Assembly (NCBI RefSeq): GCF_056712565.1
Contig: NZ_CM160072.1
Length of the DNA stretch: 64,000 nucleotides
Direction: 5' to 3' (one strand)
The position numbers were made by a program, and so were the translations under genes. A model generated the notes under the pieces. It saw only the letters and a program-made list of their open reading frames with translations, did not search any database and had not been told where the DNA came from. Of this stretch, positions 57,179 to 57,198 are shown piece by piece (the first letter of the stretch is position 1; each line of letters begins with the position of its first letter).

Positions 57179-57198
57179 TGCTGGATAGATATCCAGCG
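57179..57198. promoter_or_regulatory. LexA (SOS) box of ruvAB promoter
   Basis: TGCTGGATAGATATCCAGCG (CTG-N10-CAG palindrome) about 50 nt upstream of ruvA start. Confidence 0.75.

Follow-up and report, generated by a model that had tools for sequence, protein, structure and literature searches.

The LexA operator of ruvAB in Escherichia coli and the AT-rich DNA between this operator and ruvC

The SOS box of the Escherichia coli ruvAB operon was reportedly described in 1988 along with the sequence of the ruv operon, and it is present in compilations of the LexA regulon. Repression by LexA through promoter occlusion is established knowledge. The closest described counterpart of the site discussed here is the same box in E. 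coli K-12, which agrees fully with that of the strain under study in its 20-mer, in both promoter hexamers, and in its placement with respect to ruvA, and the differences between the two strains, namely SNPs and an A7/A6 indel in the spacer between yobI and yebB, are found only outside the box. The yebG box, which is located in the same window (the whole 64-kb stretch of DNA that was analysed), shares with the ruvA box the CTG-N10-CAG core, an AT-rich centre, the placement on or beside a promoter, and repression by occlusion, whereas the ruvA box is distinguished by CTGG/CCAG arms, GC-richer flanks, and a subsequent T7 run.

Two other arrangements resemble the surroundings of the box. Bidirectional promoters that arise from the symmetry of the -10 element are said to have been described in E. 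coli by Warman and colleagues in 2021, and the ruvA region shares with them the overlap of TATCAT and TATGAT on opposite strands and the divergent transcription start sites (TSSs) 17 nt apart, while the plus-strand start is here very weak (5 reads), its product is a long leader, and its role is putative. Intrinsic (Rho-independent) terminators overlapping the promoter of a gene that follows are comparable as well, in that the ruvA box is a GC-containing stem-loop with a U-tract directly behind it, close downstream of a gene in the same direction, which is ruvC in most genera; nevertheless, the E. coli stem is only 7 bp long, an A precedes the U-tract, no 3′ end has been reported, and termination at this site is putative. 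The account favoured here, held at a probability of about 0.93, comprises a LexA operator of ruvAB lying on the -35 hexamer, an AT-rich insert with yobI and yebB, and a start of yebB at GTG 57405.

The LexA operator of ruvAB

The 801 bases around the site match E. coli ATCC 11775 with 100% identity and nearly all of 5,426 complete E. coli genomes with 96-99%, and the gene layout of K-12 is the same as that of the window. With the RefSeq annotation moved to window coordinates, the genes are arranged as follows.

55499-57129, minus strand: ruvA and ruvB, the regulated operon
55499-56509, minus strand: ruvB
56518-57129, minus strand: ruvA, with a GTG start at 57129
57268-57333, minus strand: yobI, 21 aa, annotated in both ATCC 11775 and K-12
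57405-58007, plus strand: yebB, with a GTG start, 200 aa
58009-58530, minus strand: ruvC

The spacer between the start codons of ruvA and yebB is 275 bp long (57130-57404) and holds yobI on the ruvA strand, which corrects the divergent ruvA-yebB region of 200 bp that had been proposed in a sequence-only reading of this DNA. No known RNA family was found by an Rfam search of the spacer; the matches elsewhere in the window are, in the order listed, the RyeA/SdsR sRNA pair on opposite strands (34185-34329) and a cspA-type thermoregulator 5′ UTR (18235-18695). The elements upstream of ruvA are the following.

57179-57198, minus strand: LexA operator (SOS box) of ruvAB, assigned from sequence, matrix score, published identity, and conservation
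57195-57167, minus strand: sigma-70 promoter of ruvAB, with -35 TGGATA (57195-57190), a 17-nt spacer, and -10 TATCAT (57172-57167)
57161 and 57158, minus strand: ruvA TSSs of K-12 (13 and 9 reads, respectively; Kim et al. 2012, Table S1, PMC3415461)
57136-57140, minus strand: ruvA Shine-Dalgarno AGGAG, read from the sequence and kept in most of the aligned loci

The window reads TGCTGGATAGATATCCAGCG at 57179-57198, a CTG-N10-CAG palindrome exactly as had been stated, which corresponds to CGCTGGATATCTATCCAGCA on the ruvA strand and contains the dyad-symmetric core CTGGATATCTATCCAG (57181-57196). The bare CTG-N10-CAG motif occurs 26 times in the 64-kb window versus 13.1 +/- 3.0 times in shuffles, and its count was dropped as evidence on account of this excessive frequency. 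Candidate sites were instead ranked by the heterology index (HI), calculated with a matrix for which 16 published E. coli LexA boxes (PMC3009722 Table 4) were used, those of ruvA and yebG being kept out because both sit in this window. The ruvA box obtained an HI of 8.0 with the asymmetric matrix and 8.2 with the symmetrised one, which falls inside the range of 0.3-12.3 given by the proven boxes with the same matrices. Only the yebG box ranks higher in the whole window, all other positions having an HI of 11.5 or worse, and a site as good was held by none of the 30 shuffled windows scored with the matrix, an outcome that bears out the proposed LexA assignment by the very index suggested for its examination. 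The yebG SOS box at 41848-41867 (AACTGTGATTTTATACAGTA, HI 4.8-6.9), the reverse complement of which is the published yebG SOS box, served as the positive control for the matrix. The CTGG/CCAG arms and GC-richer flanks of the ruvA box account for both its higher HI (8 versus 5-7 for yebG) and its most stable hairpin among 18 boxes. Two other candidates nearby were rejected as not credible, a second CTG-N10-CAG site CTGAAAAATGGCGCAG at 57234-57249 (HI 20-24, and 15-17 in K-12) and a half-site at 57161-57180 (HI 14-15).

The identity of the box and its response to damage are documented in the literature. A ruvA box sequence identical to that of the window is listed among the UV-induced genes (PMC3009722 Table 4), and ruvA is tabulated as a classic SOS gene with an HI of 7.6, a figure from earlier compilations, together with a 2.0-fold induction by AZT and a 1.9-fold lexA dependence, the corresponding values for ruvB being 2.8-fold and 2.6-fold (PMC11228462 Table 1). 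With an HI of 8, the box ranks as mid-to-weak, and the induction given in the literature amounts to only about 2-fold.

The conservation of the site was surveyed in 80 ruvA-anchored loci across the Enterobacteriaceae (502 relatives were found), 78 of which had usable upstream sequence, while within E. coli an identical stretch of 60 nt around the box is shared by 4854 genomes. All 78 informative loci contain the core CTGGAT-N4-ATCCAG, with invariant arms and a freely varying central N4, and this core is located 47-52 nt upstream of the ruvA start in 76 of them and 175 nt upstream in the remaining two. In the latter pair (loci L042 and L079, at ~2376-2500), an insert containing …CACCCCAGTCACTTACT.ATGTAAGCTCCTGGGGATTCAC… lies in the ruvA leader between the box and ruvA and increases the distance of the box from the start codon from ~50 to 175 nt; by its resemblance to the consensus, it is an ERIC-like repeat.

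The promoter covered by the box is defined by several lines of data. TGGATA-17-TATCAT was the only sigma-70-like site found by a promoter scan on the ruvA strand in 57050-57500, its spacer contains the T7 run (57178-57172), and the same hexamers are given to ruvAB by genomic SELEX (PMC3946193). The TSSs of K-12, carried to the window by sequence identity, are located 6 and 9 nt after the -10 and yield leaders of 32 and 29 nt. Relative to the main TSS at 57161, the 20-mer extends from -38 to -19, and the -35 as well as part of the spacer lie within it. A LexA dimer on 57179-57198 would accordingly be placed to occlude RNA polymerase at the ruvAB promoter, a mode of repression that we infer for this operon; upon DNA damage, the RecA-stimulated self-cleavage of LexA would free the promoter, and ruvAB would then rise modestly, by about 2-fold, as expected of a mid-strength box.

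The notion that the palindrome is a chance CTG-N10-CAG without LexA function draws on the 26 occurrences of the bare motif in the window, yet it has to contend with a matrix score far better than background, a site on the -35 hexamer that is invariant across the family, and the published LexA-dependent induction (PMC11228462, PMC3009722), and its probability is negligible. LexA binding at 57179-57198 is assigned from the literature and the score, according to which the palindrome is the LexA operator of ruvAB, an already known site that belongs to the standard SOS regulon of E. coli. The LexA box upstream of ruvAB that had been recognised from the letters alone is in agreement with the published ruvA sequence, with its overlap with the -35, and with the LexA-dependent induction of ruvA and ruvB in the literature.

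The AT-rich DNA, yobI, and the start of yebB

Between the box and the stop codon of ruvC lies a segment of unusual composition, the components of which are given below.

57199-58008: AT-rich segment, 810 bp, 39.8% GC, between the box and the ruvC stop
57334-57404: divergent yobI-yebB spacer with predicted promoters and a polymorphic A-run
57342-57347 and 57366-57371: predicted yebB promoter, CTGAAA and TATTAC (PMC3946193)
57403-57398 and 57382-57377: predicted yobI promoter, TTGTCA and TATGAA (PMC3946193)
57405-58007, plus strand: yebB product, a Peptidase_C92 (YaeF/YiiX) permuted papain-like enzyme by profile match

The GC fraction is 0.26-0.31 across 57200-57450 versus 0.50 for the window, in accordance with the AT-rich character that had been noticed for 57200-57400, and the 39.8% of the 810-bp segment compares with 52-56% in the ruv genes. 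The segment is missing from most Enterobacteriaceae, in which ruvC adjoins the box: in 48 of the 78 loci, only ~84 nt separate the end of ruvC from the co-directional ruvA and both yobI and yebB are lacking, and the distribution of yebB is patchy. Unrelated cassettes occupy the same ruvC-box junction in Klebsiella, Kluyvera, and Kosakonia. Because most loci are devoid of the segment, its GC content is low, and other cargo is found at the same junction, the AT-rich stretch is best read as DNA inserted between ruvC and the box.

The cargo at this junction is diverse. E. coli R32_14_1F carries two hypothetical genes (189 and 274 aa) in place of yobI, an E. albertii locus (L022) has extra DNA there, K. 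oxytoca and its relatives hold a 220-aa ORF, and Kosakonia possesses an SDR-like gene and an HTH regulator; loci with junction cargo include L084 (2902-4333), L022, L060 (1715-2377), and L044 (607-2402). The junction cargo ORFs that were tested against Pfam and PADLOC gave no match. A divergent gene starting at the box, as could be imagined from the 'tttttCAT' adjoining the palindrome in several genera, was discarded as a candidate, the inserted genes being co-directional with ruvA.

The product of yobI is a small protein of 21 aa preceded by a strong Shine-Dalgarno sequence AGGGGG (57343-57338), with 3 of the 21 residues differing between ATCC 11775 and K-12. Its identification was published in 2008 (PMC5821084), and it is annotated by RefSeq as a stress-response small protein. 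The gene is intact only in E. coli proper, and a recognisable yobI ORF was found neither outside Escherichia nor in the divergent locus of 'E. coli' SCPM-O-B-8794; yobI looks evolutionarily young. At the position of yobI (57268-57333; loci L004 and L012), the ATG is replaced by ATA in Escherichia sp. MOD1-EC7003. In the adjacent divergent spacer, the A-run at 57345-57351 is A7 in the window and A6 in K-12 and most strains, a polymorphism by which the spacer of CTGAAA-N-TATTAC, the predicted promoter of yebB, also changes from 17 to 18 nt. Neither a TSS for this predicted proximal promoter (~57378) nor one for yobI is contained in Table S1 of Kim et al. 2012 (PMC3415461), and H-NS is flagged at the ruvA-yobI spacer in the SELEX table (PMC3946193).

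The start of yebB, which had been regarded as uncertain, was evaluated by comparison of orthologues. At the position aligned with 57405, a start codon is present in all 14 yebB loci (ATG in 8, GTG in 5, and TTG in 1), which derive from Escherichia, Pseudocitrobacter, Citrobacter, Kluyvera, Superficieibacter, an Enterobacter sp., and Klebsiella. The orthologues carry a GGA-type Shine-Dalgarno sequence 7-10 nt upstream of the aligned start, and many of their loci have in-frame stops 6-48 nt upstream of it. The match of YebB to the Peptidase_C92 profile (155.5 bits against a cut-off of 27, profile positions 3-165 of 166) covers residues 34-208 of a 224-aa form, leaving the N-terminal extension outside the domain.

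This longer form would be made from TTG 57333, and it gains some plausibility from the frame that is open from 57333 in the window and from a weak plus-strand TSS at 57178 upstream of the TTG. Nevertheless, the opposite strand carries the yobI ATG (57333-57331), which the TTG overlaps, no Shine-Dalgarno sequence was found upstream of the TTG, and the extension runs over the start and ribosome-binding site (RBS) of yobI on the other strand. In the 13 other yebB loci, the upstream TTG extension is absent or stopped, and the RefSeq start is the GTG. The 1-nt A7/A6 indel puts TTG 57333 out of frame with yebB in K-12 and breaks the frame in most sampled E. coli: in a spread sample of the species, 10 of 11 full-length matches to an 85-nt stretch of the spacer are 1 nt shorter than the window, and at least 99% identity to that stretch is shared by only 120 E. 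coli genomes. The TSS at 57178 lends no support to the long form because the TTG is out of frame in K-12, where this start was mapped. Translation of a 224-aa YebB from TTG 57333 in this strain is therefore most improbable, and the frame from TTG 57333 is non-coding DNA open by chance in this strain. By sequence comparison, yebB starts at GTG 57405, which is favoured by every comparative test.

With the GTG start adopted, the uncertainty previously attached to the yebB start is largely dispelled by the orthologues, the indel, the Pfam domain, and the RefSeq annotation alike. The observation of a yebB frame opening with atypical codons was half right: the frame is indeed open from TTG 57333 with rare codons, but the stretch 57333-57404 is non-coding, and its 'atypical codons' are the RBS and start codon of yobI together with the two predicted divergent promoters. 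Likewise, a TSS upstream of 57333, which had been named as a potential argument for the long form, does exist in K-12 (57178, 5 reads), but the long form gains nothing from it with the TTG out of frame. As a separate observation, yebB is split by an IS1 element in strain 162.2 (NZ_CP059929.1), which suggests that the gene is dispensable.

A putative terminator and a divergent transcript at the operator

Three further features bear on what else the operator region might do.

57172-57197, minus strand: terminator-like element, with the stem GCUGGAU/AUCCAGC (57197-57180), an A, and U7 (57178-57172)
57969-58001, minus strand: ruvC terminator in E. coli, a 10-bp hairpin (58001-57976) followed by UUUCAAC, -20 kcal/mol
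57166-57171, plus strand: mirror-image -10 TATGAT, with a weak TSS at 57178 (5 reads in K-12, PMC3415461)

The operator palindrome and the T7 run may also constitute an intrinsic terminator for upstream transcripts, that is, those of ruvC in most Enterobacteriaceae and of yobI in E. coli, where the yobI stop lies 70 nt upstream of the hairpin in the same direction. The E. coli hairpin has 7 bp and -10.6 kcal/mol (z = -4.0), and the E. coli and Salmonella sites were both flagged as terminator-like by a scan, the same 24 nt also holding the -35 in Salmonella. Throughout the 48 ruvC-adjacent loci, the hairpin follows the ruvC stop by roughly 9-12 nt, its stem averages 9.7 bp and -15.2 kcal/mol, and U6-7 comes next in 47. 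The stem in these genera is extended to (A)GGCUGGAU...AUCCAGCC(U), running straight into U7, and the hairpin arms of Salmonella enterica and Citrobacter are GGCTGGAT...ATCCAGCC, succeeded by the U-tract. The outer (A)GG...CC(U) bases raise the HI from 8.2 to 10.7, off the LexA consensus, yet they are mutually complementary and lengthen the stem. Moreover, the hairpin of the ruvA box is the most stable among 18 published LexA boxes, and the T7 run shows hardly any variation, in contrast to the freely varying 4-nt loop. The insert in E. coli parts ruvC from the box, and ruvC ends at another hairpin inside the insert, which is embedded antisense in the last codons of yebB and agrees with the primary ruvC 3′ end in K-12 Term-seq data (1946817, equivalent to ~57971 in the window). 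A Rho-dependent 3′ region is located further in, at K-12 position 1946742.

Several points weigh against this role. The K-12 Term-seq tables contain no RNA 3′ end in 1946000-1946299, where the box resides, although the expression of yobI may be too weak for one to show. The core of the stem is invariable, and hence covariation offers no evidence for the stem. The T-run is also the promoter spacer and is maybe conserved for that purpose, and LexA sites are palindromic anyway. The stems of the insertion loci are weaker (7.4 bp, -11.2 kcal/mol; Mann-Whitney p ~4e-13, a value that ignores phylogeny), but this difference may reflect the cut point of the insertion. A literature search for a dual operator and terminator role at ruvC-ruvA returned nothing relevant. 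On balance, a terminator role for the palindrome and T7 is a tentative proposal whose chances lie somewhat below even, and it adds to the LexA-operator explanation and does not replace the operator.

The same slightly-below-even odds are given to a broader proposal, in which an ancestral element of ~30 nt would serve as the LexA operator, the -35 and spacer of ruvAB, and the intrinsic terminator of the constitutive gene ruvC across the Enterobacteriaceae, with the 14 nt between the ruvC stop and the hairpin as a recurrent insertion site. At such a site, yobI-yebB would have been acquired by Escherichia and unrelated cassettes by Klebsiella, Kluyvera, and Kosakonia, whereupon ruvC would have had to recruit a replacement terminator inside the insert. 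A weaker version of the hairpin would be what E. coli has retained behind its yobI-yebB insert.

On the opposite strand, the K-12 table gives yebB a single plus-strand TSS, the one at 57178. It lies 7 nt after TATGAT and 17 nt from the ruvA TSS at 57161 and produces a 226-nt leader, and it looks like a mirror-image start from the symmetric ruvA -10 region, namely a bidirectional promoter. The transcript starts one base before the LexA box, which occupies its +2 to +21, and it holds a 9-codon mini-ORF with an ATG at 57203 (MKKTCEVSR*). This geometry is consistent with a repression by LexA of the 57178 transcript as well, which runs antisense through yobI towards yebB. However, only 5 reads mark the start, which may be a functionless by-product of the -10 symmetry, and yebB and yobI are absent from the main text of the AZT/lexA3 (PMC11228462) and UV (PMC3009722) studies. 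LexA control of the plus-strand transcript is accordingly considered unlikely, at something like one chance in four.

Significance of the ruvC-ruvA junction

The ruvAB box itself adds nothing new to the known SOS regulon. The corrected map of the spacer, with yobI present and yebB starting at GTG 57405, guards against the mis-annotation of a 224-aa YebB in B2-type strains carrying the A7 allele. From the viewpoint of site recognition, the bare CTG-N10-CAG motif is useless as a filter (26 per 64 kb), and the matrix score cleanly recovers the two true boxes of the window.

If LexA did control the 57178 transcript, the expression of the yobI antisense or of yebB would be mildly damage-responsive. 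A modest testable idea has also emerged, in which the palindrome of an operator may at the same time terminate the gene before it, and the junction of ruvC and ruvA may be a hot spot for insertions. Such a terminator, if real, would insulate the SOS-controlled ruvAB promoter from read-through, and the combined arrangement would allow the non-SOS gene ruvC and an SOS operon to sit 84 nt apart without read-through.
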